From the IMG/VR virus record IMGVR_UViG_2885360797_000005: DNA of 64,000 bases; one strand, given 5' to 3'. Below the pieces are notes generated by a model, which was not told where the DNA came from, did no database searches, and was given only the letters and a program-made list of their open reading frames with translations. Positions 1 through 56,604 of this stretch are shown piece by piece; the first letter of the stretch is position 1; every line of letters begins with the position of its first letter. Position numbers and translations under genes: made by a program. This DNA comes from a virus (Duplodnaviria > Caudoviricetes).

Positions 1-80
1 GTGTCAGAACTCACACTCCATCCGTTGCTTTCGGCACATTCAGTTATCTTATCAATGATATTATGCTTGTTCATATTCAT
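1..80 (-). CDS. Hypothetical protein, 5' part only (runs off the window edge)
   Basis: Minus strand reads MNMNKHNIIDKITECAESNGWSVSSDT with no stop; co-oriented with the upstream operon. Confidence 0.5.
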   Translation of the reverse strand, partial: MNMNKHNIIDKITECAESNGWSVSSD

Positions 81-95
81 ATATATAATGGTTAT

Positions 96-125
96 GTCAG
101 CCGTAACGGGGTAGCTACGGCTGAC
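96..125. terminator. Intergenic hairpin (terminator or mRNA-processing element)
   Basis: Perfect 10-bp inverted repeat GTCAGCCGTA/TACGGCTGAC. Confidence 0.5.
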
Positions 126-135
126 GAATTAGTTG

Positions 136-495
136 TTATTCGAGGTTGGCAAGAAAGCGTTGCAACCTATTGTCCTTCAACTGGCTCAACTTGGTAGGTT
201 GGAAATTCTCCTGTTGCCGGACTTGCAGCTTGCCGAAGCCTTGTGCCGTATAGTCAAGCTCCACCTCCGAAAGCTCGTTCAGTGAAATGTAGCCGTATTC
301 ATCTTCCATCATTCCGATAACGATACCAAAGAGAATGGTGTCCTTTCCATCTGTTTCTCCTTCAAGAATGTACCACCGGATTGAGCCGAGAGCGAATATC
401 GCGCGACAAACTGCTTCTTTTCCTTTGCCATCCTGGGAATAAAGCGGAAAATCTTTTAAGGTTTCCGCTAATTGGGGTGTCATTAACCTGCACAT
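136..495 (-). CDS. DUF2958-like protein
   Basis: PLYSQDGKG..WYILEG..LFGIV..EYGYISLNEL pattern typical of this mobile-element family; ATG at 495. Confidence 0.7.
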   Translation of the reverse strand: MCRLMTPQLAETLKDFPLYSQDGKGKEAVCRAIFALGSIRWYILEGETDGKDTILFGIVIGMMEDEYGYISLNELSEVELDYTAQGFGKLQVRQQENFQPTKLSQLKDNRLQRFLANLE

Positions 496-496
496 C

Positions 497-664
497 TCAA
501 TCAAATTCTATTTCGTCCTCATAAACATCTATCTCTGCGCCACTGCTGAACTGCACAGTAAAACCTTTTGCAGTCTTGGCTACTATCGTACCACGATGAT
601 AACCACGCCATGGGGTTATCAGCTCGCATTGCCGCCCGTATTCCGGAAAATCTTTCTCGTCCAT
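497..664 (-). CDS. Small hypothetical protein (55 aa, MDEKDFPEY...)
   Basis: ATG at 664 packs exactly between the two neighbouring minus-strand genes. Confidence 0.65.
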   Translation of the reverse strand: MDEKDFPEYGRQCELITPWRGYHRGTIVAKTAKGFTVQFSSGAEIDVYEDEIEFD

Positions 665-665
665 A

Positions 666-986
666 TCAACCAACTTTAGGGTTAGTAAATTCGGGGTCAT
701 AGATAAGCTCACACTCAACCAAATGTCCGTATGCCTCGGATGCAAGTTTGGATGCCCACTCGTTCCGTTGGTCATAACATCCTTTTTGATAGTTGTATGC
801 CAACTGGCGCATAAAGCCAAGGAACACCTTGAACATCTGTTGCTGAAGGTAACGGTGCGCTCTGGTCATTTCTCTGCCTGTCTGGTTGGCTGACACCATA
901 ACACCATTCGTAAAGTTCGCAAATTGCTTGGCGAACTCTTTGTCTCTCTCGGAGGTCATAGCTCCTGATAATTCTTGATAGTCCAT
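666..986 (-). CDS. Hypothetical protein, first gene of a leading-region operon
   Basis: 106-aa ORF with A-rich leader, directly downstream of hairpin 1. Confidence 0.75.
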   Translation of the reverse strand: MDYQELSGAMTSERDKEFAKQFANFTNGVMVSANQTGREMTRAHRYLQQQMFKVFLGFMRQLAYNYQKGCYDQRNEWASKLASEAYGHLVECELIYDPEFTNPKVG

Positions 987-1014: not shown

Positions 1015-1271
1015 TTTTCCCTTTTGTTTGAAGCCTTTTGGCTTCTTGGTCGGGAGAACCGTTTTTCGTGCGGTAATCCCTGCGGACAACAGGGAGGATT
1101 AGGCAAGTGTGAGGTCAGAGAGCGCGACGGAATACCCAAATTTTGGAGGCACGAGAAAATTTGTGGAAGGCTGCCGGAAAGCCCTCCGACTGAAAGCGAA
1201 GCGTCACTTGACGTTCCTCCTGTCCGCAGTACCTTTGCACGGGAAAATGGTCCTGACCAAGAAGAGCAAAA
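1015..1271 (+). promoter_or_regulatory. Long hairpin 1, candidate ssDNA (Frpo-like) promoter for the minus-strand operon
   Basis: Nested arms 1042-1055/1251-1264, CTGCGGACA/TGTCCGCAG, CAAGTG/CACTTG, apical 1137-1144/1156-1163; CTTG-N19-TACCTTTG in the 3' arm. Confidence 0.7.
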
Positions 1272-1997: not shown

Positions 1998-3536
1998 ATG
2001 GCAAAGAAAAAAACAACGGACATAGTAAAGAAAACCATTGAGCAAACGCTATGGGATTCGGCAAATGAGTTGCGAGGTAATCTTGATGCTGCCGAGTATA
2101 AAAGTGTGGTGCTTGGACTGGTATTCCTAAAATACATCAACGACTGCTTCAAAGTTAAGCACGATGAACTTGTGGCTGAAGGCGAAGGCTTTGAGGAAGA
2201 CCCTGACGAATATATTGGCGATAACATATTCTTTGTTCCTGTCGATGCTCGTTGGGAAAAGGTTGTCAATGCCTCTCTTACTGCCGAAATCGGAGTTGTC
2301 GTTGATGCGGCAATGGAAGCATTGGAGAAAGAGAACAAGCAACTCAAAGGCATTCTTCCCAAAAACTATGCTCGCCCGGAACTTGATAAACGCCGCTTAG
2401 GTAACGTAATTGATATTTTTGAAAACAACCTCCACTTTACAGGTTCGGAAGCTCGTGATGTGCTTGGACGTGTATATGAATATTTCCTTGGAGAATTTGC
2501 CCGTGAAGAAGGCAAGAAAGGTGGTGAGTTCTATACTCCTTCATGTGTTGTTCGCACCATAGTCGAAGTTATCCAACCCTACAAAGGAAAAATCTTTGAC
2601 CCCGCTTGCGGTTCGGGTGGTATGTTTGTGCAGAGTAGTAAGTTTATAGAACGTCATCAAGGTAATATCAATAAAATATCCGTCTATGGTCAGGAACTTA
2701 ACAGCAATACGTGGAAATTAGCGCAAATGAACCTTGCCATTTGTGGAATTGAAGCAAATTTTGGCGACAGCTTCGGAGATTCTTTTCACGATGACAAACA
2801 TCCATTTTTGAAAGCGGATTTCGTAATGGCAAATCCACCGTTCAACATTTCCAAATGGGGCGGTGACCAATTACGTGATGACCCACGTTGGCAATATGGC
2901 ATACCGCCGGAGGGAAACGCCAACTTTGCATGGATGCAACACATGTTATATCACCTGGCAGACAATGGACGCATCGGTTTGGTTCTTGCCAATGGCTCGT
3001 TATCCTCACAACAAGGCACAGAAGGGAATATTCGTGAAAACATCGTCAAAGCCGATTTGGTGGAAGGTATTATCGCCATGCCATCCCAACTGTTCTATAA
3101 TGTGCAGATTCCATGCTGCTTATGGTTCTTAACAAAGAGCAAAGCACAACCGGGCAAGACGCTTTTCATAGATGCTCGTAACATGGGCTATATGAAAGAC
3201 CGTACACACCGTGAACTCTCTTGTGGGGAAGAAACGGAGGATCATGGCAACGACATAGCACGTATCGCTGATACTTTCGAGCAGTTCCGTGCAGGAACGC
3301 TTGAAACCGAAAAGGGATTCTCTGCGATTGCCACGATTGAGGATATAGAGAAACAAGACTTTATCCTCACTCCAGGACGTTACGTTGGAATTGCCGAGGT
3401 TGAGGAAGACGGTGAACCTTTCCAAGAAAAGATGGAGCGTCTTACTTCCGAACTTTCTGATTTGTTCGCACAGTCACACACGCTCGAAGACGAAATACGC
3501 AAGCAATTGGCAAAGATTGGTTTTACCGTCAAGTGA
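1998..3536 (+). CDS. hsdM: Type I restriction-modification methyltransferase subunit M
   Basis: GEFYTP, DPACGSGG and ANPPF (N6-adenine MTase) motifs; 512 aa. Confidence 0.97.
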   Translation: MAKKKTTDIVKKTIEQTLWDSANELRGNLDAAEYKSVVLGLVFLKYINDCFKVKHDELVAEGEGFEEDPDEYIGDNIFFVPVDARWEKVVNASLTAEIGVVVDAAMEALEKENKQLKGILPKNYARPELDKRRLGNVIDIFENNLHFTGSEARDVLGRVYEYFLGEFAREEGKKGGEFYTPSCVVRTIVEVIQPYKGKIFDPACGSGGMFVQSSKFIERHQGNINKISVYGQELNSNTWKLAQMNLAICGIEANFGDSFGDSFHDDKHPFLKADFVMANPPFNISKWGGDQLRDDPRWQYGIPPEGNANFAWMQHMLYHLADNGRIGLVLANGSLSSQQGTEGNIRENIVKADLVEGIIAMPSQLFYNVQIPCCLWFLTKSKAQPGKTLFIDARNMGYMKDRTHRELSCGEETEDHGNDIARIADTFEQFRAGTLETEKGFSAIATIEDIEKQDFILTPGRYVGIAEVEEDGEPFQEKMERLTSELSDLFAQSHTLEDEIRKQLAKIGFTVK

Positions 3537-3582
3537 TATGACTTCTACTCTTCGTTAGGTTCACCATATAATAACGAAGAAT

Positions 3583-4575
3583 ATGAAAGAAAAATTAATT
3601 CAAGAAATCAGCACCGCAATGGCAGAAGTGTTAAGTTTTGAACAAGTAGCTCACCTTAATAGCGTATTGCTTCAAGTCGTAAGCCAATACACTATTACCG
3701 AAGATGGCGAGACGCTGCACGAAAATGCAGCGTCTAACGACCGTCTGCTTGACATATTCCTGTCTGCAAAACAAGTGGAGGGTTGCACAACTCCGACAAT
3801 CAAATACTATGGTTCAACCATTCGGCAGTTATTCAAGAAGATGCCTAAAAAGGTCACCGACTATACTACAGAGGATATCAGAGCCTACCTTGCTGTATTT
3901 CAGCGAAAAAACAAATCAAGCAAAGTTACCATTGATAATATTCGTCGGATATTTTCTTCGTTCTTTGCTTGGCTTGAAGAGGAGGACTACATCGTCAAAA
4001 GCCCTGTCCGCAGAATACATAAGGTGAAAACAGGAACACAGGTCAAGGAGGTGTTGAGTGATGAGAATATCGAGCAACTCCGTGATAGTTGCACTAAAAT
4101 CCGTGACCTTGCCATTATCGACTTGTTGGCTTCAACCGGTATGCGTGTTGGTGAATTGGTAAAACTCAATCGTGAAGACATTAACTTCACAGAGCGTGAA
4201 TGTATCGTATTTGGTAAGGGCAACAAGGAACGTATAGTTTACTTCAATGCTCGCGCAAAGATTCATTTACAACAATACTTGTCTTCTCGCAAAGACCGAA
4301 ACAAGGCTCTCTTTGTCTCTTTAGCTAAACCGCATAAACGCTTGGAAATTTCGGGCGTGGAAACTCGTTTGCGTAAAATTGGGCGCACTGCAAAGATTGT
4401 ACGTGTTCATCCTCACAAGTTCCGCCGTACATTGGCAACAATGGCAATTGACAAAGGTATGCCTGTGGAACAAGTGCAACGCTTGCTTGGTCATGTCAAG
4501 ATTGACACTACCATGCACTATGCAATGGTTAATCAAAACAATGTCAAACTCTCACACCGTAAATTCATAAATTAA
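3583..4575 (+). CDS. Tyrosine recombinase of the type associated with hsdS shuffling
   Basis: TGMRVGEL, HPHKFRRT and LLGH..TTMHY catalytic residues; lies inside the hsd locus. Confidence 0.93.
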   Translation: MKEKLIQEISTAMAEVLSFEQVAHLNSVLLQVVSQYTITEDGETLHENAASNDRLLDIFLSAKQVEGCTTPTIKYYGSTIRQLFKKMPKKVTDYTTEDIRAYLAVFQRKNKSSKVTIDNIRRIFSSFFAWLEEEDYIVKSPVRRIHKVKTGTQVKEVLSDENIEQLRDSCTKIRDLAIIDLLASTGMRVGELVKLNREDINFTERECIVFGKGNKERIVYFNARAKIHLQQYLSSRKDRNKALFVSLAKPHKRLEISGVETRLRKIGRTAKIVRVHPHKFRRTLATMAIDKGMPVEQVQRLLGHVKIDTTMHYAMVNQNNVKLSHRKFIN

Positions 4576-4576
4576 C

Positions 4577-5221
4577 ATGTGGTATTGTTCGACATATAAC
4601 AGTAGCTCATCTTTCCTCAAAAATAAACAAGGAAATGATAATTTAGAGCAGCAGGCGCAAGCGTTGTTCAAGTCTTGGTTTATTGAAAATGCCATATATT
4701 CAGGGGATAAAATAGCGGATTATTTTATGCCAATTAGAGGTAAAAATCTGCTAACATCAGAAGCTACGGGTGGTAACGTTCCTGTAGTTGCAGGAGGCCT
4801 AAATCCTTCAGCTTATCATAATACAGCAAACACAGATGCTCCTGTAATCACAATATCCGCTTCTGGTGCGAATGCTGGTTTCGTAAATCTTTGGGGAATT
4901 CCCGTATGGTCTGCTGATTCATCATATATAGATAGTTCCGTAACACCTTATGTGTATTTTTGGTATAATCTATTGAAATATAAGCAAAAGAATATATTTG
5001 AGGCACAAACTGGTTCTGCACAACCCCACATTTATCCTAAGCATATTGGAGATATTGAAATTCCAAACTTAGATTTATCTCAAATACAGCTATACAATAA
5101 TGTCGTTTCAACTTATTACCATAAGATTGATGAGAACAATACAGAAAACTGTCGTTTGGCTACATTAAGAGATACACTTCTCCCAAAACTTATGGCAGGG
5201 AATATAAGTCTTGATTATTAA
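4577..5221 (+). CDS. hsdS: Spare C-terminal half of HsdS (TRD2'); homology begins at 4633
   Basis: NDNLEQQAQALFKSWF...TGSAQP...LRDTLLPKLMAG; the first ~19 codons are not HsdS-like. Confidence 0.88.
   Translation: MWYCSTYNSSSSFLKNKQGNDNLEQQAQALFKSWFIENAIYSGDKIADYFMPIRGKNLLTSEATGGNVPVVAGGLNPSAYHNTANTDAPVITISASGANAGFVNLWGIPVWSADSSYIDSSVTPYVYFWYNLLKYKQKNIFEAQTGSAQPHIYPKHIGDIEIPNLDLSQIQLYNNVVSTYYHKIDENNTENCRLATLRDTLLPKLMAGNISLDY
4633..4680 (+). repeat. hsdS central repeat, copy A (core + right arm)
   Basis: 46/48 identical to 7146-7193; core AAATGATAATTTA at 4633-4645. Confidence 0.9.
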
Positions 5222-5239
5222 TCATTTAGGCAAAACAAT

Positions 5240-5491
5240 ATGATTGAAAAGATAATAAATAGGAATATAGGAAAGAGTCAAAAATGTAGGGTGAAATATG
5301 GAAACAACTCTGAATTTGATCTTTTGATTGTCAACATCAATGATGGCGAAAGGGTACGCAAGTTCTCAATAGAAGCAAAACATCTTTCCTCTGAGAAAGA
5401 TTCTATTTATTTCTATCCTGAGACAAAGAACGATGTGGTTACAATAAGATGGAATCATGAGATTGAAAACTACATAAACGAAGTACAATAG
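5240..5491 (+). CDS. Hypothetical protein within the hsdS cassette region
   Basis: 83-aa ORF filling the gap, co-oriented. Confidence 0.65.
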   Translation: MIEKIINRNIGKSQKCRVKYGNNSEFDLLIVNINDGERVRKFSIEAKHLSSEKDSIYFYPETKNDVVTIRWNHEIENYINEVQ

Positions 5492-5528
5492 GCTACGAAC
5501 ATTTGTAGTCAAACTACTATATTATGTT

Positions 5529-6617
5529 ATGAATGACTTTGAAGAATATATAAGACAAGGTGAGCCTCAAAAAAGAGAAAAAGGCTATGCTTGGCAAACA
5601 GCCATCGGATTGCAGGCGGTGGATGCCTTGAAGCCCTCGGAATATCTGATACAAACGGCACGTCAGCATATTGAGGGCGATATAACTATCGAAGAAGCCA
5701 AACAGCTTATAGATAGTTATTATCAATCAAAGACCGTTAGAGCAGACATCGAAGACAGAACAGAAGAAGCCGATAAGGTTTCAGCACGTATTGCCGAAAT
5801 ATTATCGGAGAAGACGTTTACATTTTCGCCCGTTGAGTATATCACCATTCATCGCCGCCTGTTCCAAGGCATCTATAAATTTGCAGGAAAGGTCAGGGAT
5901 TACAATATCACCAAAAAGGAATGGGTGCTGAAAGGCGAAACTGTACTTTATGCCAGTGCCGACAGTATACGTGAAACGCTTGATTTCGATTTCATGCAGG
6001 AAAAGAATTTTAGCTATAAGGATTTGAACATCAATGATGCTATCACACACATCGCTAAGTTTATTTCCGGAGTTTGGCAGATTCACGCTTTCGGTGAGGG
6101 AAATACCCGTACAACGGCAGTGTTTACAATCAAATACCTGCGCACGTTTGGCTTCGACATCAGCAATGAAGCGTTTGCCAATCACTCTTGGTATTTTCGT
6201 AACGCTTTGGTTCGAGCAAATTATAACAACTTGAGCAAAGGTATTTACGCTACCACCGAATATATCGAAGCGTTCTTTAGAAACCTTATTCTTTCCGAGC
6301 ATAACGAACTAAAGAACCGAGCAATGCTTGTGCAAGAACTTTCTGCCCAAGACATTCAAAGTGCAAACACGATAAAAGAAGTCTCTCCAAAGTGCAATAT
6401 TTGCACTTTAAATTGCACTTTAGAAGAAATTGCCGTACTGAACTTCTTGCGAGAACAGCCTAAAGCCACGCAAAAAGAAATTGCAGCGCATATAGGCAAA
6501 TCTGAGAGAACAGTGAAGACCATTACCGTAAATTTGACCGAAAAAGGTATCATAGAGCGCAAAAATGGTAAAAGAAATGGCTTTTGGGAGATTATAACGA
6601 ATGATTTAAACAGCTAA
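5529..6617 (+). CDS. Fic-domain protein with N-terminal antitoxin-like region and C-terminal winged HTH
   Basis: HAFGEGNTRT Fic motif variant; C-terminal TQKEIAAHIGKSERTVK HTH. Confidence 0.88.
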   Translation: MNDFEEYIRQGEPQKREKGYAWQTAIGLQAVDALKPSEYLIQTARQHIEGDITIEEAKQLIDSYYQSKTVRADIEDRTEEADKVSARIAEILSEKTFTFSPVEYITIHRRLFQGIYKFAGKVRDYNITKKEWVLKGETVLYASADSIRETLDFDFMQEKNFSYKDLNINDAITHIAKFISGVWQIHAFGEGNTRTTAVFTIKYLRTFGFDISNEAFANHSWYFRNALVRANYNNLSKGIYATTEYIEAFFRNLILSEHNELKNRAMLVQELSAQDIQSANTIKEVSPKCNICTLNCTLEEIAVLNFLREQPKATQKEIAAHIGKSERTVKTITVNLTEKGIIERKNGKRNGFWEIITNDLNS

Positions 6618-6648
6618 ATTCTCATTTATGGAACAGTGGAAAGAATAT
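6604..6648 (+). repeat. 45-bp direct repeat spanning the hsdS start, copy 1
   Basis: 44/45 identical to 7817-7861. Confidence 0.9.
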
Positions 6649-7830
6649 CAATTAAAGGATGTAACCACCATTTTAGGTGATGGTTTACATGGAACTCCAG
6701 AATATGACGAAAATGGAACTGTGTTTTTCATCAATGGTAATAATCTTGTTGATGGGAAAATTGAGATAAAAGATTCAACAAAGCGTGTTTCAGAAGAAGA
6801 AGCTAATAAGTATAGGAAAAATCTAACCCAGCGAACTATATTCGTTTCTATCAATGGAACAATCGGCAATGTTGCAAAATATAAAGGAGAAGCATGTATT
6901 TTGGGCAAAAGTGCTTGTTACTTTAATGTGGCTGAAAATTTCGACTTGAATTTTATATATTATGTTGTAGCCTCGCAACAATTTAAAGATGCAATAACAC
7001 GTTTAGCTACAGGTACTACAATTAAAAATGTATCATTGGAAACAATGAGGAATTATTCATTTATGGCACCAAGCATAAATGAACAAAAACGCATCTCGTC
7101 TATCCTTTCTTCTCTCGACTCTAAAATTGAGCTGAACCGCCGGATAAATGATAATTTAGAGCAGCAGGCACAAGCGTTGTTCAAGGCTTGGTTCGTGGAA
7201 TTTGAACCATTTGGAGGCACAATGCCAAGCAATTGGGAGATTTGCGAAGCTCAAAAATACTTCAATATAAATATAGGGAAAACTCCTCCACGGAATGAAA
7301 TGCGATGGTTTAGCCAAAAATCAACAGATTGTAAATGGGCCTCTATTTCAGATCTTGGCAAATGTGGACTTTTCATTAACGATACGTCTGAATATCTGAC
7401 TAAGGATGCGGTAGAAACTTTTAATATAATCGTTGTGCCAAAAGGTACTATCTTGTTAAGTTTCAAACTCACGCTTGGACGAGTTTCAATAACAACTTGT
7501 CCACTTACAACAAATGAAGCTATTGCTCGATTCTTGATTAATCACGATTATGAACGAGAGTATTTGTATTTGCTTCTAAAGCAATTCGATTATACGTCTC
7601 TGGGTAATACATCATCTATTGCTACTGCTGTTAATTCTAAAATAATAAGAAGTATGCCGATAATGATGCCAACAGTTGATGTTCTACAGCGATTCCATCA
7701 TATTGTTAGTCCTATTTTTACAAGAATGCGTTTTTTGTCGGATGAAATAATGCAGCTTACAGATACTCGTAACACAGTTCTCCCACAACTGATGTCGGGC
7801 GGGCTAAAAATTAACAATTTAAACTGCTAA
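6628..7830 (+). CDS. hsdS: Complete type I specificity subunit (TRD1-TRD2)
   Basis: Two TRDs joined by LDSKIELNRRINDNLEQQAQALFKAWF; ends LPQLMSG. Confidence 0.95.
   Translation: MEQWKEYQLKDVTTILGDGLHGTPEYDENGTVFFINGNNLVDGKIEIKDSTKRVSEEEANKYRKNLTQRTIFVSINGTIGNVAKYKGEACILGKSACYFNVAENFDLNFIYYVVASQQFKDAITRLATGTTIKNVSLETMRNYSFMAPSINEQKRISSILSSLDSKIELNRRINDNLEQQAQALFKAWFVEFEPFGGTMPSNWEICEAQKYFNINIGKTPPRNEMRWFSQKSTDCKWASISDLGKCGLFINDTSEYLTKDAVETFNIIVVPKGTILLSFKLTLGRVSITTCPLTTNEAIARFLINHDYEREYLYLLLKQFDYTSLGNTSSIATAVNSKIIRSMPIMMPTVDVLQRFHHIVSPIFTRMRFLSDEIMQLTDTRNTVLPQLMSGGLKINNLNC
7111..7193 (+). repeat. hsdS central repeat, copy B (left arm + core + right arm)
   Basis: Left part matches ~8354-8401, right part matches 4633-4680; core at 7146-7158. 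Confidence 0.9.
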
Positions 7831-7861
7831 ATTCTCATTTATGGAACAGTGGAAAGAATAT
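7817..7861 (+). repeat. 45-bp direct repeat spanning the hsdS start, copy 2
   Basis: 44/45 identical to 6604-6648. Confidence 0.9.
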
Positions 7862-8422
7862 AAAATATCTGAAATAATAGAAGAAATCGCAATGGGGCCT
7901 TTTGGCTCAAATATCAAAGTCGATAACTTTATTGACTCTGGTATTCCTGTCCTTAATGGCTCAAATTTGCAGGGTATCAAATTAAATGAGGATTCGTTTA
8001 ACTACGTTTCTGAAGAAAAAGCGGATACTCTTGGTAGAGCTAATGCCTTCAGGGGAGATGTTGTTATTACCCATAGAGGTACATTGGGGCAAATAGTGTA
8101 TATACCTCTTGATTCGAAGTATGAAAGATATGTTATATCGCAAAGTCAATTTAGATTGAAACTCAATAAGGATATTATAAGACCGGATTTCTTTGTATAT
8201 TTTTTTCACACACGTTTGGGGCAGCATAGATTGTTGGTGAATGCTTCTCAAGTGGGAGTACCTGCATTAGCAAGGCCAACTTCCACCTTTAAGGAAGTAT
8301 TTATTCCCGTCCCACCAATGGAAATGCAAAATAAAGTAATGGGCGTACTCCATTCTATCGACTCAAAAATCGAGCTGAACCGCCGTATAAATGATAATTT
8401 AATTCCAACCTATTATGCCTAA
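7841..8422 (+). CDS. hsdS: Spare N-terminal half of HsdS (TRD1')
   Basis: Same MEQWKEY start, a different TRD, ends IDSKIELNRRINDNL then diverges. Confidence 0.9.
   Translation: MEQWKEYKISEIIEEIAMGPFGSNIKVDNFIDSGIPVLNGSNLQGIKLNEDSFNYVSEEKADTLGRANAFRGDVVITHRGTLGQIVYIPLDSKYERYVISQSQFRLKLNKDIIRPDFFVYFFHTRLGQHRLLVNASQVGVPALARPTSTFKEVFIPVPPMEMQNKVMGVLHSIDSKIELNRRINDNLIPTYYA
8354..8401 (+). repeat. hsdS central repeat, copy C (left arm + core)
   Basis: Near-identical to 7111-7158; core at 8389-8401. Confidence 0.9.
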
Positions 8423-11400
8423 AACGTTCCATTTTACAGAAGATTCATACGAGCAGTCGATTATCTCCTTGTTCAAGGATATGGGCTATGAATATCATTA
8501 TGGCCCGGAACTCGAATCCGATACCTGTCGAGAACTCACTGATGCTACCATACCGGGAGCATTACGCAAAGCAATGTTGATTATCAATGGAACAGACAAA
8601 ACTGGAGCCGTTGACGAAGCTATCCGACAAATCCGTGAACTATTCAGCCAGCCTTTGGTTAGCGCAAACGTGACCCTTACCGACTGGTTACAAAATGGTT
8701 TGGACGTTACATTCAAAACCGGGCAAGGAACATTGCGCAGTGACCATATCAAAATAATAGACCCTGTTAATATAGACAACAACTCATTTGTAGTTGCCAA
8801 TCAATGGACGGTTGTAAACGGTAACTCCACCAAACGTGCTGACATCGTGGTGTTCGTCAATGGTCTGCCTGTCTCAGTCATTGAGTTAAAATCTCCTTCC
8901 CGTGAAGTTACCAATTCGGAGGAAGCACACCAACAGTTGCAGAACTATATGCGTATCGTTCCACAACTCTTTACTGCTTGTCAAATGCTTGTGATAAGCG
9001 ATATGGCTGATACTCGTGTGGGTACTATTACAGCCCCTCTTGACCGATATATGGAGTGGAAAACCACAGATGGAAGTTACGAAAGCACTGCATTTGCTGA
9101 CTTTGAGACTTTTTTCAATGGCATCTTCACCAAACATCGCTTCATTGATATTATGTCAGATTTCACTCTTACAATGGGAGTGGATAAAAAAGTCCGTATA
9201 CTTGCAGGCTACCATCAATATTTTGCCGTTAAGAAAGCTCTTGACTGCACAAAACAAGCCTTACAACGTAATGACGGTAAAATTGGTGTATTTTGGCACA
9301 CACAAGGTTCTGGCAAGAGTCTTTCAATGGTATTCTATGCCCATCAACTTTTGAAAAATCTGCTGAGTGCCACCTTACTTGTATTGACCGACCGCCTCGA
9401 TTTGAACGACCAACTGCATAACACTTTTGCGGCTTGTAGCGATTACTTACGCCAAACGCCTATAAAGGCTACTGATGGCGAACACTTGTATGAACTGCTT
9501 GAAAAGCGTAAAAGTCATGGTATCATCTTTGCCAACATCCAAAAATTCAAAGACCGTGACAAACTGATTACCAATCGTTCTGATGTAATTGTGATTAGTG
9601 ATGAAGCCCATCGTACACAATCAAACACAAGAACAAAGGTAGATACAGAAACCGGTGAACTAAAACTTGGCTTTGCGGCTATCGTACGTAAACTTTTGCC
9701 TCATGCTGCGTTCATCGGTTTTACAGGTACACCTATCGAGCAAGACGATAACGATACAAGAGAAGTATTCGGCAACTATATTGACATCTACGACATGACC
9801 CAAGCCGTGGAAGACGGTGCCACTGTTCCTGTCTATTATGAAAGTCGCTTGTTAAAATTGGATTTGGATGCCGATACGCTTAAATTGCTGGATAACGAGT
9901 ATGAAAAGCTTGCGGAAGAAGGAGCAGAGGAACAGGACATCAAACGCTCCAAGGATGAAAACGCACGTATTCATGCCCTACTCTCAGCACCACAAACTAT
10001 CGATACCCTGTGTAAAGACATCATAGGTCACTACGAGAACAACCGTGCCGATTTGCTTACGGGCAAGGCTTTGATTGTGGCGATAGACCGTGCTACCGGA
10101 ATTGATATTTACAAAAAGCTGATAGAACTTCGTCCTCAGTGGAAAGACATTATTTGTGTTGTCATGACACAAGGAAACCAAGATCCAGTGGAATGGAATG
10201 ACATTATTGGCTCTGGCGCACGAAAAGAGGAACTGGCTCGTCAGTTCAAAGACAACAATTCACCATTGAAAATCGCTATTGTCGTGGATATGTGGCTCAC
10301 AGGTTTTGATGTACCTTCGCTTGCCACGATGTACGTTTACAAGCCCATGAAGGGGCATAATCTGATGCAGGCTATTGCCAGGGTAAATCGTGTTTTCCCG
10401 GAAAAGAGCGGTGGTTTGGTGGTAGATTATATTGGCATAGCCAAGGCTCTTAAAAAAGCCATGCACGACTATACAGGACGTGACAAGAAACGCTTTGGTG
10501 ACCCGAATATCAAGACTACCGCTTATCAGCAATTTGTTGCTGCACTAAAGCGTTGCCGTGAATGTATGGATGACTACGACTATTCAGCGTTTGCAGACTG
10601 TTCCAACTTGCAACGAGCCAATCTTATAAGAGGTGGTGTAAACGTGCTGCTTGACAAGAACAATCTTGTTTCCTCTCAACCTACCACCCAGACTGATGAA
10701 AACGGCAACATTATTTTAGTGGACTCCGTTCCTGCCGAAGCACAAAAGGTATTTATGGAAGAAAGCAAACGTCTGGCACAAGCTGCATCGCTTTGTCGTA
10801 GCCTGCTGACTCCAGCGGAACGTTATGAAGAAGCATACTTTGAAGCGGTTAGGACATTGCTTTTGCGCCTTACGGGAAACAAAAATATTACTCGAAAAAT
10901 TATAGACGAGCGTATTACACAGTTGCTCAAAGTGGCTATCAAGGCTGACGGCGTGGTGGAAATACTCAGCACCAAAGGGACTGAATTTTCTCTTTTTGAC
11001 GAGAATTTTTTGAAAGAGATTGCCGAGATGAAAGAGAAAAATTTTGCGCTCGAACTTCTCAAACGTTTACTTGAAGAACATATCAGGAAACATGCTAAAA
11101 AGAGAATGGTAGAAGCCGAAAAGTTTAGTGAAATGCTTGATGCCCGACTTGCCGAATACTTGCGTGGCTTGATTTCCAACGAGGAGGTGATAAAAGAGTT
11201 GCTAAAAATGGCGCAGGAGCTGAAAGCGAATGCAGAGCAAGCATCAGAATTGGGACTGACAGAAGAAGAACAAGCATTTTACGATGCTTTGACAAAACCA
11301 CAAGCCGTAAGGGATTTCTACGAAAACGACCAACTTGTTGCGATGGCAAAGGAACTGACCGAAGCCTTACGCAGTAGCAAAACGATTGACTGGCGGCAGA

Positions 11401-11540
11401 AAGAGTCGGCTCGTGCCAAGATGCGCTCTATGGTGAAACGATTGCTCAAAAAGTACAAATACCCACCAGAAGAACAAGAAGCTGCACTTGAAACAGTTAT
11501 TCGTCAGTGTGAACTCTATGCAGATTCAGACGAAGTATAA
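8415..11540 (+). CDS. hsdR: Type I restriction endonuclease subunit R
   Basis: D..VIELK nuclease motif, HTQGSGKS, DEAHR, FTGTP, QAIARVNR. Confidence 0.97.
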   Translation: MPKTFHFTEDSYEQSIISLFKDMGYEYHYGPELESDTCRELTDATIPGALRKAMLIINGTDKTGAVDEAIRQIRELFSQPLVSANVTLTDWLQNGLDVTFKTGQGTLRSDHIKIIDPVNIDNNSFVVANQWTVVNGNSTKRADIVVFVNGLPVSVIELKSPSREVTNSEEAHQQLQNYMRIVPQLFTACQMLVISDMADTRVGTITAPLDRYMEWKTTDGSYESTAFADFETFFNGIFTKHRFIDIMSDFTLTMGVDKKVRILAGYHQYFAVKKALDCTKQALQRNDGKIGVFWHTQGSGKSLSMVFYAHQLLKNLLSATLLVLTDRLDLNDQLHNTFAACSDYLRQTPIKATDGEHLYELLEKRKSHGIIFANIQKFKDRDKLITNRSDVIVISDEAHRTQSNTRTKVDTETGELKLGFAAIVRKLLPHAAFIGFTGTPIEQDDNDTREVFGNYIDIYDMTQAVEDGATVPVYYESRLLKLDLDADTLKLLDNEYEKLAEEGAEEQDIKRSKDENARIHALLSAPQTIDTLCKDIIGHYENNRADLLTGKALIVAIDRATGIDIYKKLIELRPQWKDIICVVMTQGNQDPVEWNDIIGSGARKEELARQFKDNNSPLKIAIVVDMWLTGFDVPSLATMYVYKPMKGHNLMQAIARVNRVFPEKSGGLVVDYIGIAKALKKAMHDYTGRDKKRFGDPNIKTTAYQQFVAALKRCRECMDDYDYSAFADCSNLQRANLIRGGVNVLLDKNNLVSSQPTTQTDENGNIILVDSVPAEAQKVFMEESKRLAQAASLCRSLLTPAERYEEAYFEAVRTLLLRLTGNKNITRKIIDERITQLLKVAIKADGVVEILSTKGTEFSLFDENFLKEIAEMKEKNFALELLKRLLEEHIRKHAKKRMVEAEKFSEMLDARLAEYLRGLISNEEVIKELLKMAQELKANAEQASELGLTEEEQAFYDALTKPQAVRDFYENDQLVAMAKELTEALRSSKTIDWRQKESARAKMRSMVKRLLKKYKYPPEEQEAALETVIRQCELYADSDEV

Positions 11541-22635: not shown

Positions 22636-23225
22636 GAATTTTACACCTATCAGATACTCACGGTTGCCATCATCGGCTATACGACTTGCCCGAAGCGGAC
22701 ATTCTTGTCCATTCTGGTGATTTCACTATGTCAGGAAGCGAGAAGGAAGCCCTTGACTTCTTGAACTGGTTTTGTGACCTCCCATATCCGCACAAGATAT
22801 TCATCTGTGGTAACCATGATGAATGTCTGTATGGGGCAAACATCAGTGGCCTTAACAACAATGTCCATTATCTATGCAATTCCGGTTTGGAAATTGAAGG
22901 TTTGAAGTTCTATGGTGTACCCATGTTCATGAGTGACTGCATCAGTGACCGACAAAACCGGAACTATGCCGAAATACCTTCCGATACCGATGTGTTGATA
23001 ACGCATTGTCCGCCATACGGCATATTAGACTTTGATGATAACATAAACTACGGCTCGGAAGAATTGTTGCAACGGATTACACAGATTCATCCACGGCTGC
23101 ACTTGTTTGGGCATATACATATACAACATGGAATTACCCATAATGGCGCAACCACATTTTCCAACGGTGCCATTATGAACGTAGATTATTCTCAACTCAA
23201 TGATGCTAATCTGATAGAGCTATAA
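22632..23225 (+). CDS. Calcineurin-like metallophosphoesterase
   Basis: SDTH, HSGD, GNHD, THCPP, FGHIH; 4-nt overlap with the upstream gene. Confidence 0.93.
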   Translation: MRILHLSDTHGCHHRLYDLPEADILVHSGDFTMSGSEKEALDFLNWFCDLPYPHKIFICGNHDECLYGANISGLNNNVHYLCNSGLEIEGLKFYGVPMFMSDCISDRQNRNYAEIPSDTDVLITHCPPYGILDFDDNINYGSEELLQRITQIHPRLHLFGHIHIQHGITHNGATTFSNGAIMNVDYSQLNDANLIEL

Positions 23226-23229
23226 CTCT

Positions 23230-23295
23230 CTTTATATATGTTCAAACTCCGACCCACGCCTCACGGCGGAAGTCGGAGTTTGAACATATATAAAG
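23230..23295. terminator. 24-bp perfect inverted repeat between convergent genes (bidirectional terminator)
   Basis: CTTTATATATGTTCAAACTCCGAC / GTCGGAGTTTGAACATATATAAAG. Confidence 0.7.
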
Positions 23296-23299
23296 GAAC

Positions 23300-24577
23300 T
23301 TATGCTGTTGCCCTTTTTGCCTCCAAGAAGCGGTGGGCATTATCATTCACCAACTTGATAATCCTATCGTGGTATTCAGTGTTGCTGTTGCAAACTCCAC
23401 GACTTTGTACTACTTTCCCTTGGCTCAAACTGAACTCCACGGTCTCGATGCGGTTTCCTTGATGGTCGTGAGCCGATAGAATAACAGAGTCAGTCTTGGC
23501 ATAGTATTCGCATTGGAAAACACAATGCTTCATCTTGTTACCCTCTTCCTTGTAAGCCTCCAGCGAATCCAATACGGAAATTTCTATATCTTCATCGCTG
23601 ATGACAATGCCGAAGAAGCAGGACTTGTTCCTGTAAAACTCGGCTTCGTGTGCCTTGGCTTTTGCCATCCGCTCCATATCCCTACGCTTTTGCTCAATGG
23701 CATCCGCTTTCTTCAACCAATGGTCATGCCCGGTTTTCAAGTTTATCGGACAGATATACTTGACATTACGGATGTCCTTACCGCACTTGTCAAGCAAGCG
23801 GATGATGTCGCACCAAGTACCGAAGTCCTCAATCCGATAATGATGCCGTGAAGCTACTTTGTACGACTGCCAACAGTTATTAAGGTCGAAAGCGTGATAG
23901 ACAAAATACTCAACCGCCTTGTAGTCTCTCGTTTTCATCATTGTTTCCATCCGGTGGTCAGATAAGAGAGATTTCATCAGTTTGAGCGGATGGCAATCGG
24001 GCAATTTGCCTTTCATTCCGTTCCGTCTCAATTCGGGAAGGGCAGAATAATAAGGATAGATATAAGTATCGGATATGACCATATAGATATCAGACAATCT
24101 CCTCAACTCTATCGGACTGGCAAAACTAAAGCGGTCTTGATAATAACCTCTGGTTTTCATTCTTGAAGTAACCGCCACTTGTCCTTTGGCATTGAGCCAC
24201 AAACGGCATATTTCATAATTATAGAAATCCATCGGTTTCCCTTTGTGGTAAATGACCGTCAAAAGGAATACTCGCTGCACTTGCAATCCGTCAATCGCTT
24301 CAAGGGTAGAAAAGTAGCTCCTCTCCTGGTACTTGCGCTTCAACGTATCGGTTACTTGCAAGCGGTGTCCGCAATGAGGACAACGTACAAACTTACCTTT
24401 TCCCTCATAATCAAACTTTTCTCCGCAATCGCCACACGTACATTTACGGTTTGATGTACGGAACGCAATGTGTTTCACGACGTTTCTTATTGCCCACTCC
24501 ACGGCTTTAGAGCCGATGGCGGTCAGCTTCTCATTGGAAGCTGCCACCAATTTCTCAAACTTGTTTCTTGGTTTCAT
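23300..24577 (-). CDS. PcfJ domain protein
   Basis: MKPRNK start, Zn ribbon CGDCG..CPHCG, C-terminal EGNKMKHCV..RIETVE..QSRGVCN. Confidence 0.88.
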   Translation of the reverse strand: MKPRNKFEKLVAASNEKLTAIGSKAVEWAIRNVVKHIAFRTSNRKCTCGDCGEKFDYEGKGKFVRCPHCGHRLQVTDTLKRKYQERSYFSTLEAIDGLQVQRVFLLTVIYHKGKPMDFYNYEICRLWLNAKGQVAVTSRMKTRGYYQDRFSFASPIELRRLSDIYMVISDTYIYPYYSALPELRRNGMKGKLPDCHPLKLMKSLLSDHRMETMMKTRDYKAVEYFVYHAFDLNNCWQSYKVASRHHYRIEDFGTWCDIIRLLDKCGKDIRNVKYICPINLKTGHDHWLKKADAIEQKRRDMERMAKAKAHEAEFYRNKSCFFGIVISDEDIEISVLDSLEAYKEEGNKMKHCVFQCEYYAKTDSVILSAHDHQGNRIETVEFSLSQGKVVQSRGVCNSNTEYHDRIIKLVNDNAHRFLEAKRATA

Positions 24578-24581
24578 ACGC

Positions 24582-25004
24582 TTAAAAATCAAATAGTGAT
24601 AACTCGGTTTGTTGGGGAACTTTGGGTTTGCTTGGCTTGGGTCGGGAGTTTCTGACTTGTATCTTGCGAAACTCCTCCTCTTGATAGCGTTTGAGGGCGA
24701 TGTCCCTTTGTTCAGCCTTTTCCTCCTCTGTCAAGTCTATATGGTGGTTCACTACAACATTACAAGATAATGGCTCGCCAATTATCAATGTTGGCTCTTC
24801 TGCTGCATGGACTGCCATAGAGAACACCTCCATATCGGAAAAACCGCAACAACCTGAATGTTGAACTTCATTGAAAATATAAGTTACAATATCATCAATG
24901 CTACGTGCTGTAGCTTCATACTTGGCACGAAAAAGTTCATCCTCCTTTGCTCGGTTATCAAGGTAGTTTTTGATAATCTCTTTAAATTGCTCTGTTCCTT
25001 TCAT
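24582..25004 (-). CDS. PcfK-like protein (family that includes the Cas9 inhibitor AcrIIA9)
   Basis: MKGTEQFKEIIKNYLDNRAKEDELF..EVQHSGCCGFSDMEV..ELSLFDF. Confidence 0.88.
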   Translation of the reverse strand: MKGTEQFKEIIKNYLDNRAKEDELFRAKYEATARSIDDIVTYIFNEVQHSGCCGFSDMEVFSMAVHAAEEPTLIIGEPLSCNVVVNHHIDLTEEEKAEQRDIALKRYQEEEFRKIQVRNSRPKPSKPKVPQQTELSLFDF

Positions 25005-25034
25005 ATATGTTCGTTTTAAGTTGTTATACATTTA

Positions 25035-25340
25035 CTATCCTATCGGCAACCTCTCTAAAAGTTCCTCCAATGGGATGGTATTGATGTCCTCACTGCGGAA
25101 CAACACTTTCCACTCCGGCTTAACCAACAAGCGATGGAAACACTCAACCGAAAAGCCTTTATTATTAGAGTAGCACTCTATCAAAGCGAAGTTCTTGCCA
25201 TCCTTGCGGATATGAGCATAATCGGGAGCCATACCGAAAGCGCATCTGCGGATGTCCTCTCTGTTCCACAACAAGGTCAGTTCGTAAACATTCCCTTTGA
25301 GGTTTATCTTTTCCTCTCTGTCTTTAAGTGTGATTGCCAT
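25035..25340 (-). CDS. Hypothetical protein (MAITLKDREE...), first gene downstream of hairpin 2
   Basis: ATG at 25340; the longer track ORF runs through the hairpin and is unlikely. Confidence 0.7.
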   Translation of the reverse strand: MAITLKDREEKINLKGNVYELTLLWNREDIRRCAFGMAPDYAHIRKDGKNFALIECYSNNKGFSVECFHRLLVKPEWKVLFRSEDINTIPLEELLERLPIG

Positions 25341-25351
25341 ATGTTCTAATT

Positions 25352-25589
25352 TTTTCCCTTTTGTTTGAAGCCTTTTGGCTTCTCGCTTCCGGGTGATTTT
25401 TACGATGCCATCACACGGAGGAACAAGGGGCGTAAGGCAAATGTGGCAAGCGGAAAGAAAGAGACGGAATACCCAATTTGGCACAAATTGCGGAAGGCTG
25501 CCGTCTGCTTTCCGTGCAGACAAGAGCAGCGGCATTTGCTGTCGGCACCGCCCTCCGTTACTTTGTATCGGGAAATAGAACCGGGAGCG
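25352..25589 (+). promoter_or_regulatory. Long hairpin 2, candidate ssDNA (Frpo-like) promoter
   Basis: Arms 25384-25392/25581-25589, ACGGAGG/CCTCCGT, GCAAATGT/GCATTTGC, CGGAAAG/CTTTCCG; TTTG-N19-TTACTTTG; 32 bp identical to 1015-1046. Confidence 0.7.
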
Positions 25590-25695
25590 CGGATGACCGA
25601 ATGAAGATAACAGGCACAAAAATCCCCGACACCCTTGAACCTTGCGGTTCCCGGATGCCGGGGCAACACATTATGAAAGAGGAAAAATATATTTT

Positions 25696-26232
25696 CTACA
25701 TCAAAGGAATCTCAAAAGACTTGATGACACAATGAGCCTCTTTGTCTAATATGAACCAGTATTCGGAATGATAAGGCTTGCCATTGGCATCAACATTTTT
25801 GTATTCAATCTTGACTTTCCAACCGGTAAATGATTTTTTGACATTATCATTTGACTGTGGAGTCATAGAACGAATTACCGACATCGCCTCCATCTGACGC
25901 TCCATCAGTCCGGCAATCTCCTTGTCGTCAGGATTGAAGTTCTCCAACCCGTCAGTCAGTATCATCACCTTCTCGTTGATTTTCATCATCGCCATAGAGA
26001 GAATCATCTTCTCGTCCATCGTAATATACTCCCTGCCAAACACGGAATCCGGCTGGCTGATACCGATAATCTTGACAGCTTTCGGATTATCCACCGAAGC
26101 CTTCAATGCCAGTTCAGCCACCTCGACGGCACGCTTCTTCGGATTATAACCACGGAAAACGAGATAACCCACAACGCCCCAAAACAGAATAATCGAAGCC
26201 AATATAATGGCTAATCTTGTACCCGGTCTCAT
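25696..26232 (-). CDS. Membrane-anchored hypothetical protein
   Basis: N-terminal TM helix; 4-nt overlap with the upstream gene. Confidence 0.75.
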   Translation of the reverse strand: MRPGTRLAIILASIILFWGVVGYLVFRGYNPKKRAVEVAELALKASVDNPKAVKIIGISQPDSVFGREYITMDEKMILSMAMMKINEKVMILTDGLENFNPDDKEIAGLMERQMEAMSVIRSMTPQSNDNVKKSFTGWKVKIEYKNVDANGKPYHSEYWFILDKEAHCVIKSFEIPLM

Positions 26233-26780
26233 ATCTTCACAATTTGGAGTTTGTCAGGAGAGACACCCAGACGCTTGCGGTACACCGAACCGTCCTCACG
26301 ATACATCTCCAGTTCATTAGAAGTGATGCCTTTCTCACAAAGTTCCTTGGCTTCAGCCAAAGTTACCTGATGCCCACCGATATTTCGCCAGATGGCAAAC
26401 GAACAGGGAGATTCCTGATTGCCATAGTTGGAACAGTTGAAGGCACGACTTCCCACACGGATTTCACCGCCACAATGAGGACATTTACCGATAACCGCCT
26501 GCATATTGATGTTCCCGTCATCAGCCAGTTCAAGTACGGTAGGAAAGGCTTTTCCTTCCTTGCTGGTGAAGCCATCCAATAGAACGGAACGATTGGTAAG
26601 CAGTTCTGCTATCTCATTATCCGCCATTTTACGGTTGCCAAGAATGGCATTGATGTTCAGCACACACGAGGGATGTTCTCCCATATTATTCTCGCAGCGA
26701 TAACCCTTGCAGGTCTTCACTACGTTGCCGCCACAAAAGGGGCAACGACCAATGATTTTCTTTTCTGTTGTCATTGTCAT
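26229..26780 (-). CDS. Stand-alone topoisomerase III C-terminal repeat (Zn ribbon) protein
   Basis: Two GxCPxCGG..C repeats with GFTSKEGKAF. Confidence 0.8.
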   Translation of the reverse strand: MTMTTEKKIIGRCPFCGGNVVKTCKGYRCENNMGEHPSCVLNINAILGNRKMADNEIAELLTNRSVLLDGFTSKEGKAFPTVLELADDGNINMQAVIGKCPHCGGEIRVGSRAFNCSNYGNQESPCSFAIWRNIGGHQVTLAEAKELCEKGITSNELEMYREDGSVYRKRLGVSPDKLQIVKI

Positions 26781-26845: not shown

Positions 26846-27598
26846 TTACCATTTAAGCAAGTAGCCTTGATTCCATTCCGACACAATGCCGTCAATGATA
26901 TTTTTGCCAGACATCACACTTGCCCAACCCTCCGGGTCAAGAGAGAACCAGAGGTCATTCCAGGATAAGGTACGAACCTGCCATGCCAATATGAATAAAT
27001 CCGTGTTGATGGCTTCCAGTCGGGTCACCACCTCATTGGCGATATAGTACCGCTCGGAGGAGTTGAGCAAGTTCACCTTGTGCTTCTCGTTCTTCCCGTC
27101 CCCACCGGGCACGTTGTAACTGCCCGAAGTCACTAACTGTTTCATGAACGGATAGAGAGCCGCCATCTGTGTTGCCGCATCCGTCAGCTCGTCCGACACG
27201 ATGGCAGCGATAGCCGTACCTTTCAGATTATGCCCGACAGATTTGGTCAACAGGCTGCAGTTCTTTGGTATCTCAGTCGTAACCAATTCCCCTGCACGTT
27301 TAATCTGGTAGAGGTTCTGCATCGCACCCTGCGCATTGGAGAGGTATTCCAGCATCTTGTTCTCCACAGAGTGAATACGGTCAAGGGCCAAGGTCACGGC
27401 TGTCTCGGCAGCGATAATCTGTTCCTGTCTTTTCTTACGTTGCTTGTGGATATTCTTCAATTCCACCGTCTGGGCAATCACCGCACCCGTCAATGCCGGG
27501 TCGGTCTGCTGGGCAAATGTAGGCAAGCCGTTCATCAGGGAAACTGATAGAATGGCCAATGCCGCCACTTTTGATTTTATTCTTATCATATACTTCAC
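26846..27598 (-). CDS. Exported conjugation-associated protein, paralog of 42413-43153
   Basis: Signal peptide; shared NDLxFxxDPEGWA..KN..WN. Confidence 0.7.
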   Translation of the reverse strand: MKYMIRIKSKVAALAILSVSLMNGLPTFAQQTDPALTGAVIAQTVELKNIHKQRKKRQEQIIAAETAVTLALDRIHSVENKMLEYLSNAQGAMQNLYQIKRAGELVTTEIPKNCSLLTKSVGHNLKGTAIAAIVSDELTDAATQMAALYPFMKQLVTSGSYNVPGGDGKNEKHKVNLLNSSERYYIANEVVTRLEAINTDLFILAWQVRTLSWNDLWFSLDPEGWASVMSGKNIIDGIVSEWNQGYLLKW

Positions 27599-30395: not shown

Positions 30396-31655
30396 TTACC
30401 TTTTCATGGATGTAGATTTCTCCACCTTGACACTTTTTGCCGCAAGCATACCTGTGATTTCCGTATTGAGATACTTGGCTGCAATCTGTTCCCGGGTGGC
30501 GGTCTTTGCCTTGAAAAGGGAATAGCCGTCATCGAAGGAGATTTCATGCTTGGTGGTGCGGCCTTTGTCGCCCATATCCACGGACACCTTCCACTTGTTG
30601 TCACCTCGGTCTTTCGCCACACGCACACCTTTCGGGTCTATGCCTTCGGGAAGCTGGTACTTCTCGTAGGCTGATTTCAGATGCAGACGCTCACCGAAGT
30701 TCTTTTCCACCAACTGGGCCGGAGTCATTACCCGGTCGAAGTAGGCATTCAAGTCCTGTCTTGAAGCGACTGCCGACATCTTGGAATCACCGATTTGCGC
30801 GTAGAACTTATACTTGCCATAGTCGGCACGCTGCTCATCCTTCTCCTTATAAACATTGAACTTCTCCACGGAGATATTACCTTCCGGTCCGGCAATGGAC
30901 TTCGGCATCTTGAAGGCTTCCTCCGAAACCTTGGGCATCAGCTTGGTGGGATAATAGCGTTCCATCAACTGAGGCACGGTCATTTCCTTCTTCTGGTAGG
31001 CGGCAAGGTCGGCAGCATCCATCCGCTGGGGCTTCAACTGCTTGCCGTCCATCTTGGCGGTGAAGTACCACTCTTCAGGATTGGCTTTGCTTTGGTAGGC
31101 ATGGCCGTGGGTCACTTTCTCACCGGCGGCAGTTACCATTTGAGGCTCGCGCGGTTTGCGTTCCTGTTTCGCCTCGGCTTTCTGTTCACTCTTGGCTTCC
31201 ACTTGTGTTTCCACCTTCTTTTCCTTGGCAGGTTTCTTCCCGGCTGCGTTCTTCACAGTCTTGGCAGGCTCTTCCTGCACAACCTTCTCTTTACTCTTCT
31301 TTGTCATATCGATATTGTTTGATAGGATTGGCTCCTCATTCTTCCTTATTTTCTCTACAACTTCAAGCCTGTCACAGATGGCGACACGTGCTCCGGCACG
31401 GATGAGTTTGGGCAGATAGGTGTCCAATACGGTTCTTGGAAACTCGGCGGTCTTTATCTTCTTCTCAATGCCCGAAGTCAGTTTGTCCATCGTGGCTATA
31501 CCGAGAATCAAGGCGGCTTTTACGGCATCTTCTTTGTAGAGTTTATAGAAGTCACCCTCCCGAAAAAGGAGCATCGCATCTGGATGCTTTGCCTTCAGAT
31601 TGCTGAACTCTTTGGGTAGTCCGGCTTCCAGCTCTTTATCTGATTGCTTTGCCAT
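30396..31655 (-). CDS. MutS domain I fused to a repeated C-terminal region
   Basis: [35 protein letters not shown]; no ATPase domain. Confidence 0.8.
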
Positions 31656-53730: not shown

Positions 53731-53815
53731 ACAATAGTCCTTTAGTAAAATTGGTTTCCTGAACCTTTTTCGCAAGGCGAAACAGCGAGAAATCGCTCCG
53801 ATGCGGTAGCAGTCG

Positions 53816-53886
53816 GCAAGTCACCTTTGTTGATACGAAACGGAGTTTTGTGGCCACAAAGGTACAACTTGCTTGACAAATCCTGC
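53816..53886 (+). other. Candidate origin of transfer (oriT)
   Basis: Nested IRs GCAAGT/ACTTGC, ACCTTTGT/ACAAAGGT and palindrome TTTGTGGCCACAAA, then MOB_P nic-like ACTTGC and ATCCTGC; upstream of mobA. Confidence 0.65.
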
Positions 53887-53921
53887 AACGCAGTTCGATG
53901 TCCTCCAAGGTTCTTTTTACG

Positions 53922-56468: not shown

Positions 56469-56495
56469 ATACAATTATTTAATAAGTTGAACCTT

Positions 56496-56548: not shown

Positions 56549-56604
56549 AATACGTTCATTTGGCTCATTTTTTGCGGTCAAATGCACGAACCGCCTAAGC
56601 GCAA

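Follow-up and report, generated by a model that had tools for sequence, protein, structure and literature searches.

The stretch of DNA analysed here, 64,000 nt long and called the window below, belongs to a mouse-gut Bacteroidales genome and represents an integrative conjugative element (ICE); positions to the left of its first letter are given with a minus sign. The element is inserted at the 3' end of ppdK (56672), and because orphan ppdK ends are present at -9246 (encoding AQAAIEE*) and at -9125, i.e. some 9.1 to 9.2 kb left of the window, its span should be about 66 kb. Tandem elements occupy this ppdK end, with two paralogous integrases of 497 and 500 aa (one of them in the 54972-56670 region of the window) that share similar arm-type repeats (GGTGTAAGC). 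The mobilization, transfer and integrase genes are all on the minus strand (Table 1). A group II intron (Rfam RF00029, 55 bits; 46397-48397, minus strand) with a 622-aa reverse-transcriptase-like ORF inside it lies in the tra region, adjoining TraG.

Much of the rest is cargo on the plus strand. Its type I restriction-modification part (1998-11540) comprises HsdM, a tyrosine integrase, three to four HsdS-like genes (one of them short), a Fic/DOC-HTH protein and a 1041-aa ORF at 8415-11540; with its built-in recombinase it resembles a specificity shufflon. An inverted repeat with 39-nt arms and a 4-nt loop (23222-23303) lies precisely between the ends of the plus-strand cargo and of the PcfJ gene; it may be a two-way terminator or the junction of a cargo insert. 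A further plus-strand block at the left end (-7555 to -1555) encodes a 1110-aa DnaG-like primase fusion, an AAA_21 ATPase with RloB (a defence-like pair) and a DUF169 protein, and converges on the operon that starts at hairpin 1. Upstream of hairpin 2, the minus strand between 26229 and 31655 carries establishment-type genes that have no hairpin of their own.

Table 1. Positions of the hairpins, their parts and the genes around them (window coordinates)
Feature	Position	Strand	Remarks
Hairpin-1 operon	1..986	-	ORFs 666-986 (106 aa), 497-664, 136-495 (DUF2958-like)
Hairpin 1	1015..1271	+	leader block, small leader hairpin, ~235-nt rod; DNA fold
Small leader hairpin GAAGCC-TTTT-GGCTTC	1030..1045	-	rod base
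Template T-run of 5' arm	1062..1066	+	opposite conserved AAAA 1244-1247
Conserved apical domain	1128..1176	+	CGGAATACCC, variable stem-loop, GGAAGGCTGCCG; upstream of -33 box
-33 box CTTG	1207..1210	+	perfect duplex with CAAGTG 1104-1109
-7 box TACCTTTG	1230..1237	+	inner bases in bubble
Plus-strand cargo	1998-23225	+	type I restriction-modification with integrase and several specificity genes, among others
Hairpin-2 operon	23300..25340	-	101-aa ORF, PcfK-like 24582-25031, PcfJ-like 23300-24592
Hairpin 2	25345..25600	+	same architecture; BLAST and nhmmer (E 3.5e-54)
Topoisomerase C-terminal zinc-ribbon protein	26229-26780	-	
DUF3991-Toprim protein	27595-28779	-	
ArdC-like protein with zincin peptidase domain	28803-30140	-	
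Protein with MutS domain I only	30396-31655	-	
MobC coupling protein	33830-36139	-	
TraG, TraJ, TraK, TraM, TraN		-	
ParA/TraA		-	
Relaxase, MobB/TraI-MobA(P)-type	51681-53237	-	NCBIfam
NikA-like MobA (mobA)	53341-53775	-	Pfam NikA-like
Probable oriT region	53776..53900		upstream of mobA and relaxase; conserved inverted repeats and block GGCAAGTCAC in six elements
Tyrosine integrase	54972-56474	-	

Hairpin 1 stands in front of a series of small minus-strand genes. When its segment was folded as single-stranded DNA, the plus strand formed one long imperfect rod of -53.8 kcal/mol, as compared to a mean of -34.4 for 200 dinucleotide shuffles, none of which folded equally well (z -6.1). The minus strand of the same segment reached -48.5 kcal/mol (z -4.1). 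An earlier, sequence-only reading of this DNA had proposed that the plus strand folds into a single rod of about 235 nt, and with both strands folded under DNA parameters this is what we obtained, the plus strand being the better of the two. The boxes which that reading had placed on the 3' arm are also there, 19 nt apart. The -33 box is a part of CACTTG, which is perfectly paired with the 5' arm. In the -7 box TACC is paired, TTT is bulged and the final G is paired again, and on the opposite side lies an unpaired ATCC; the mismatched stretch of the 5' arm that the -7 box had been said to face is thus found in the computed fold.

Rfam gave no family at the gathering score for the hairpin-1 site, and matches listed at E up to 10 were at chance level only. 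The stretch is present in four metatranscriptome runs, as contigs that carry neither transcript ends nor strands; these contigs end at repeated parts of the hairpin (1017-1046 and 1128-1167), and depth is flat on either side. To the right of hairpin 1 there is a non-coding gap (1299-1730) containing an inverted repeat with 26-nt arms (1429-1498) and minus-strand -7 boxes at 1628 and 1720, which are possible ordinary promoters reading leftward through the hairpin.

The hairpin, about 240 nt long, is not unique to this locus. BLAST and nhmmer searches found three copies in the genome: hairpin 1, hairpin 2, and one that is cut by a contig end. Hairpin 2 has TTTG at 25535-25538 and, again after 19 nt, TTACTTTG at 25558-25565. 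The truncated copy (G000:C212:1543-1631) heads another series of small minus-strand ORFs and may belong to a second element of the genome. Full-length homologs with 77-83% identity were recovered by BLAST in seven other genomes, usually two per element. Among the BLAST-found homologs, which were not selected by any pattern, the apical domain is the best conserved block, well conserved and not invariant, and the sequence to the right of the hairpin is not conserved. The exact apical pattern occurs in at least 116 stretches, all but two of them in Bacteroidales (Bacteroides, Phocaeicola, Prevotella, Muribaculaceae, Parabacteroides and Rikenellaceae); the two exceptions were binned as Oscillospiraceae and Deltaproteobacteria. 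None of 400 further genomes drawn from across the phylum contained it, which shows only how narrow the pattern is. After removal of four poor matches, 99 distinct copies were analysed. As these had been collected by the exact apical pattern, they are a biased sample of the family, and the invariance of the apical domain in their alignment (A2) is not to be taken as evidence; the inner stem of the domain (helix 11) does covary. We also considered a transposon-like foldback element or an attC-like site, and set this aside: the hairpins have fixed positions in related elements, their sequence is conserved as well, and there are only three copies in the genome.

The rod is maintained by compensatory change. 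A consensus of 64 pairs was derived by column voting over individual DNA folds and counted on the 99 rows of A2. Standard pairs fill 86.0% of the cells, versus 36-46% when the 3' partners were slid by one to three columns, and the covariation score is 0.333 versus at most 0.097 in the slid controls. Not one of 500 shuffles reached any of the pairing or covariation measures. Substitutions on both sides of a pair, whose absence among homologs the sequence-only reading had set as the test of its proposal, proved abundant, occurring at 46 of the 64 pairs. Even whole stem segments are exchanged between subfamilies (CTGCGGAC/GTCCGCAG, CGGAGG/CCTCCG and CGGCATAAG/CCTATGCCG). RNAalifold, run on a crude MAFFT alignment of 103 sequences, returned a partial structure only.

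Hairpin 1 alone has just three G-T pairs, and the decision on which strand folds must therefore rest on the family. Here, the plus strand is the more stable one in 82 of the 99 copies under DNA parameters (mean difference -3.9 kcal/mol) and in 88 under RNA parameters (mean difference -7.6 kcal/mol). Counted column by column on the plus strand, there are 299 G.T and 155 A.C wobble cells; G.T prevails at 34 pairs and A.C at 11 (p 8e-4 if the pairs are independent), an excess of about two to one, and not an absolute one. A count of isolated mismatches on arm-to-arm alignments gave a weak excess of G.T (193 versus 154), and the column-wise count was used instead. The earlier reading had called the plus strand the folding strand from those wobble pairs that it checked, and the family points the same way. 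The small leader hairpin at the rod base, kept in 94 of the 99 copies, behaves in the opposite manner. Its single non-Watson-Crick pairs, read on the plus strand, are A.C in 19 copies (at least nine distinct variants) and G.T in none. Such a polarity, with G.U in the minus sense, argues that this small hairpin folds as the leader of a minus-sense mRNA; it thus serves as an internal control and indicates that the rod base is transcribed leftward.

The promoter boxes are a property of the whole family as well. In the 99 copies the 3'-arm profile is T99 A85 n C84 T100 T99 T88 G99, that is TAnnTTTG, with the variation at the n positions of the consensus. A -33 box, (C/T)TTG, precedes it in 97 copies, and the spacer is 19 nt in 64 copies, 18 nt in 25 and 17 nt in seven. 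TTTG at -33 and TAnnTTTG at -7 form the consensus of the primary Bacteroidetes sigma factor (PMC7366714). Pairing probability is 0.94 for the -33 box. On either side of the -7 box it exceeds 0.9, and it falls to 0.32-0.38 for the five inner -7 bases; as these bases are unpaired in the fold, the non-template -7 element would be presented already opened. The 5'-arm bases facing the box are not conserved. Hence what had been described for hairpin 1, i.e. the two boxes, their spacing and the mismatch at -7, is conserved throughout the 99 copies. The boxes are also confined to one strand: a full promoter is found on the plus strand in 75 of 97 copies, and on the minus strand in none of the 97, neither within the hairpin nor within 200 nt to its right (upstream). 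Around hairpin 1, no minus-strand -7 box occurs between -1100 and 1271.

Further downstream, A at positions +7 to +10 after the -7 box is conserved in 88-98% of copies and is paired to the T-run of the 5' arm. With the final G of the box near -7, the predicted start of transcription would be at template T1065, giving a leader of about 79 nt. In wobble pairs at box positions, and at the -33 box without exception, T is kept on the 3' arm while the 5' arm varies; past the predicted start, T is retained on the 5' arm. In double-stranded DNA the same boxes make an ordinary rightward promoter.

As the earlier reading had it, the genes adjacent to hairpin 1 are on the minus strand at lower coordinates. 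They continue past the window start. The first ATG is at 986, and three more ORFs follow left of the window, to about -994; in Pfam this operon has a weak DUF2958 match only. The operon at hairpin 2 matches PcfK (4e-52) and PcfJ (6e-42), and its first, 101-aa ORF has no family match. That ORFs begin directly at the hairpin base holds well beyond these two cases, since an ATG-started minus-strand ORF of at least 40 aa lies within 90 nt left of the base in 92 of the 99 copies. The first genes represent at least nine unrelated families, including a ParB-like protein (653 aa), DUF2958 and PcfK, and most have no Pfam family. The hairpin therefore seems to be a portable unit placed before varied cassettes of small genes.

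It is important in this context which strand is transferred. The relaxase gene is typically a lagging-region gene and the last to enter (PMC11541004). The strand that bears the hairpin is the relaxase template strand in all 11 element copies that could be mapped (the window, G124, G100 and G017, three elements of G601, two of G602, one of G605 and one more diverged element of G604), and in these the relaxase is 26-75 kb from the hairpin, beyond the tra genes. These elements are relatives, so that their shared orientation reflects one inherited arrangement and not 11 independent tests. Four contexts with five hairpin copies (G602 709664 and 726628; G605 689244; G603 1469424 and 1473324), to which no relaxase or tra gene could be assigned, stand outside the mapped set. 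By the rule that the relaxase gene enters last, its template strand would be the one transferred, and on this reasoning the plus strand is probably that strand. If it leaves rightward from about 53.8 kb, some 13 kb would enter ahead of hairpin 1 and some 38 kb ahead of hairpin 2, which would place the latter outside a classical leading region. A MOBP-like nick motif, ATCCTGC at 53881, was rejected as a landmark, as it is not conserved among six elements and its conserved surroundings are the minus-strand mob promoter. In a literature search, we did not find the transfer direction of CTn341/CTnDOT stated.

Our proposal is that Bacteroidales ICEs carry single-strand DNA promoters in the form of hairpin 1 and its relatives, analogous to Frpo and built on -33/-7 boxes, a reading which, judged from the sequences, we consider rather probable. 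The hairpin would probably turn on a few small genes when the element enters a new cell. In this scenario, the plus strand would come into the recipient as single-stranded DNA and fold into an imperfect rod of about 100 bp, rebuilding a promoter for the primary Bacteroidetes sigma factor, with the -33 box in duplex and the inner bases of the -7 box already unpaired; the latter box, TAnnTTTG, would lie on the 3' (non-template) arm, 17-19 nt past the former. Polymerase would then head for the hairpin base, copying the 5' arm from a start close to the conserved T-run (in hairpin 1, at about T1065), and would go on to the small minus-strand genes, for which the same strand is the template and which had entered just before the hairpin. 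The resulting mRNA leader would bear its own small stem-loop. Synthesis of the complementary strand would then abolish the leftward promoter. The transfer of the plus strand, the firing of polymerase from the fold and the early expression of the genes behind it are inferred. The transcript may also prime synthesis of the complementary strand, and the two roles, promoter and priming, are mutually compatible.

A bolder version of this proposal makes the promoter depend on strandedness in both directions. When folded, the hairpin would direct transcription leftward into the early genes, and when double-stranded, rightward into the variable cargo slot next to each copy; the apical domain would be set aside for loading a factor of the host or of the element, either a primase or a single-strand binding protein, and the hairpin as a whole would be a portable entry cassette that times expression and primes the second strand. 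We regard this version as unlikely. As to the slot itself, elements differ in how far apart hairpins 1 and 2 lie (3.9 to 25.5 kb), so that the region right of hairpin 1 can be recognised as a hotspot of cargo insertion, and in the double-stranded form the boxes of the hairpin aim into it.

Another possibility is that the hairpin is a single-strand origin (sso/ssi) and nothing else: polymerase or primase would recognise the folded DNA, be it on the transferred or on the displaced strand, and lay down a short primer, with any gene expression being incidental. Such an origin would share the geometry of a single-strand promoter, namely a strand-specific fold with promoter boxes in its stem. The very conserved apical domain, which contains CTG, could be its loading site, and the element does encode a DUF3991-Toprim protein and a DnaG-like primase. 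Moreover, Frpo itself reportedly primes DNA synthesis in vitro, to go by the title of a 1997 paper by Masai and Arai. However, a pure origin has no need of a place at the start of an ORF (92 of the 99 copies), behind a conserved leader with a leader hairpin in mRNA sense. It would also be odd that two sites serve a 66-kb element while 28 kb of tra/mob DNA on the 3' side have no such site. An origin without a promoter function therefore appears quite improbable to us.

It could also be argued that the rod works as RNA, either as a structured leader, a processing site or an insulator in minus-sense transcripts from promoters further right, or as a plus-sense small RNA. The small leader hairpin is clearly RNA-sense; read-through transcripts could come from the -7 boxes at 1628 and 1720, and hairpin 2, lying between co-directional genes, is probably read through when double-stranded. 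Yet the rod, unlike the leader hairpin, folds better in the plus sense, in 88 of the 99 copies under RNA parameters, and has more G.T than A.C on that strand, which does not suit a minus-sense RNA; nor is there a conserved minus-strand promoter within 200 nt in any of the 97 copies to supply one. A plus-sense RNA, in turn, would have no promoter upstream of the rod, since that region is the coding region of at least nine different genes. With no Rfam match, and with a conserved DNA promoter consensus, variable nn included, that has no role in RNA, we find a function at the RNA level very improbable. Least probable of all is an ordinary rightward double-stranded promoter, acting on the cargo slot or making an antisense RNA, within an inverted repeat of other purpose (a protein-binding palindrome, a cruciform or a recombination hotspot): the boxes do form a complete canonical promoter pointing right, towards 21 kb of plus-strand cargo genes at hairpin 1 and a hotspot of variable length, but this leaves unexplained the 46 covarying pairs along the whole rod and the bubble located precisely at the -7 box, there is no sequence conservation to the right, the gene right of hairpin 2 is on the minus strand and convergent, and hsdM has its own -7 box at 1858.

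If hairpin 1 and its relatives are indeed single-strand promoters, several consequences follow. Plasmids are able to express anti-defence genes ahead of any attack by the recipient, and single-strand promoters explain how; so far such promoters have been characterised only for the proteobacterial -35/-10 type. A conserved, covarying family of the -33/-7 type would widen the reach of this principle to the gut microbiota's main phylum, in which ICEs move resistance and fitness genes. It would provide a sequence signature for early-entry genes, i.e. for candidate anti-defence proteins, most of which have no known family. It would also offer a natural template with a pre-opened -7 element for studies of the Bacteroidetes sigma factor, and a testable part for timed expression in Bacteroides engineering.

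Strand- and orientation-specific folds of 200-300 nt with promoter-like boxes, situated on the displaced or transferred strand, are found in ssoA, ssoT and ssoU of rolling-circle plasmids and in sso1 of ICEBs1. What these origins produce is a short primer, and they are not known to be coupled to ORFs, whereas 92 of the 99 Bacteroidales hairpins immediately precede an ORF and have a conserved mRNA leader. Hairpin promoters have also been predicted in anti-defence islands (Samuel et al. 2024, PMC11541004), upstream of small leading-region genes on the transferred strand; these candidates, however, were sought by the -35/-10 consensus and by likeness to Frpo, and the word stem 'Bacteroid' is absent from that survey (PMC11541004). 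Our literature search found no report linking Bacteroides with a single-strand promoter, in agreement with the earlier statement that no characterised version built on -33/-7 boxes was known.

Close parallels exist on the F plasmid, whose Frpo1 and Frpo2 are single-strand promoters (PMC9849209), and on ColIb-P9 with its ssi/Frpo-like sites. There, as here, a long imperfect hairpin of one strand rebuilds the host promoter boxes and occurs in several copies per element; and there, as we propose here, transcription runs toward the hairpin base, the same strand templates genes that entered just before, and with the change to double-stranded DNA the leftward promoter disappears (PMC9849209, PMC11541004). 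As blastn against 72,556 plasmid records gave no hairpin match, we regard the Bacteroidales hairpin as an analogue of the Frpo/ssi sites of IncF and IncI plasmids and not as their homologue. The differences concern both the boxes and the carrier, namely -33 TTTG and -7 TAnnTTTG in a Bacteroidales ICE as opposed to the -35/-10 boxes of Frpo in a proteobacterial plasmid. The Bacteroidales hairpins are further set apart by their conserved apical domain, the conserved bubble at the -7 box and the position of one copy in the middle of the element.
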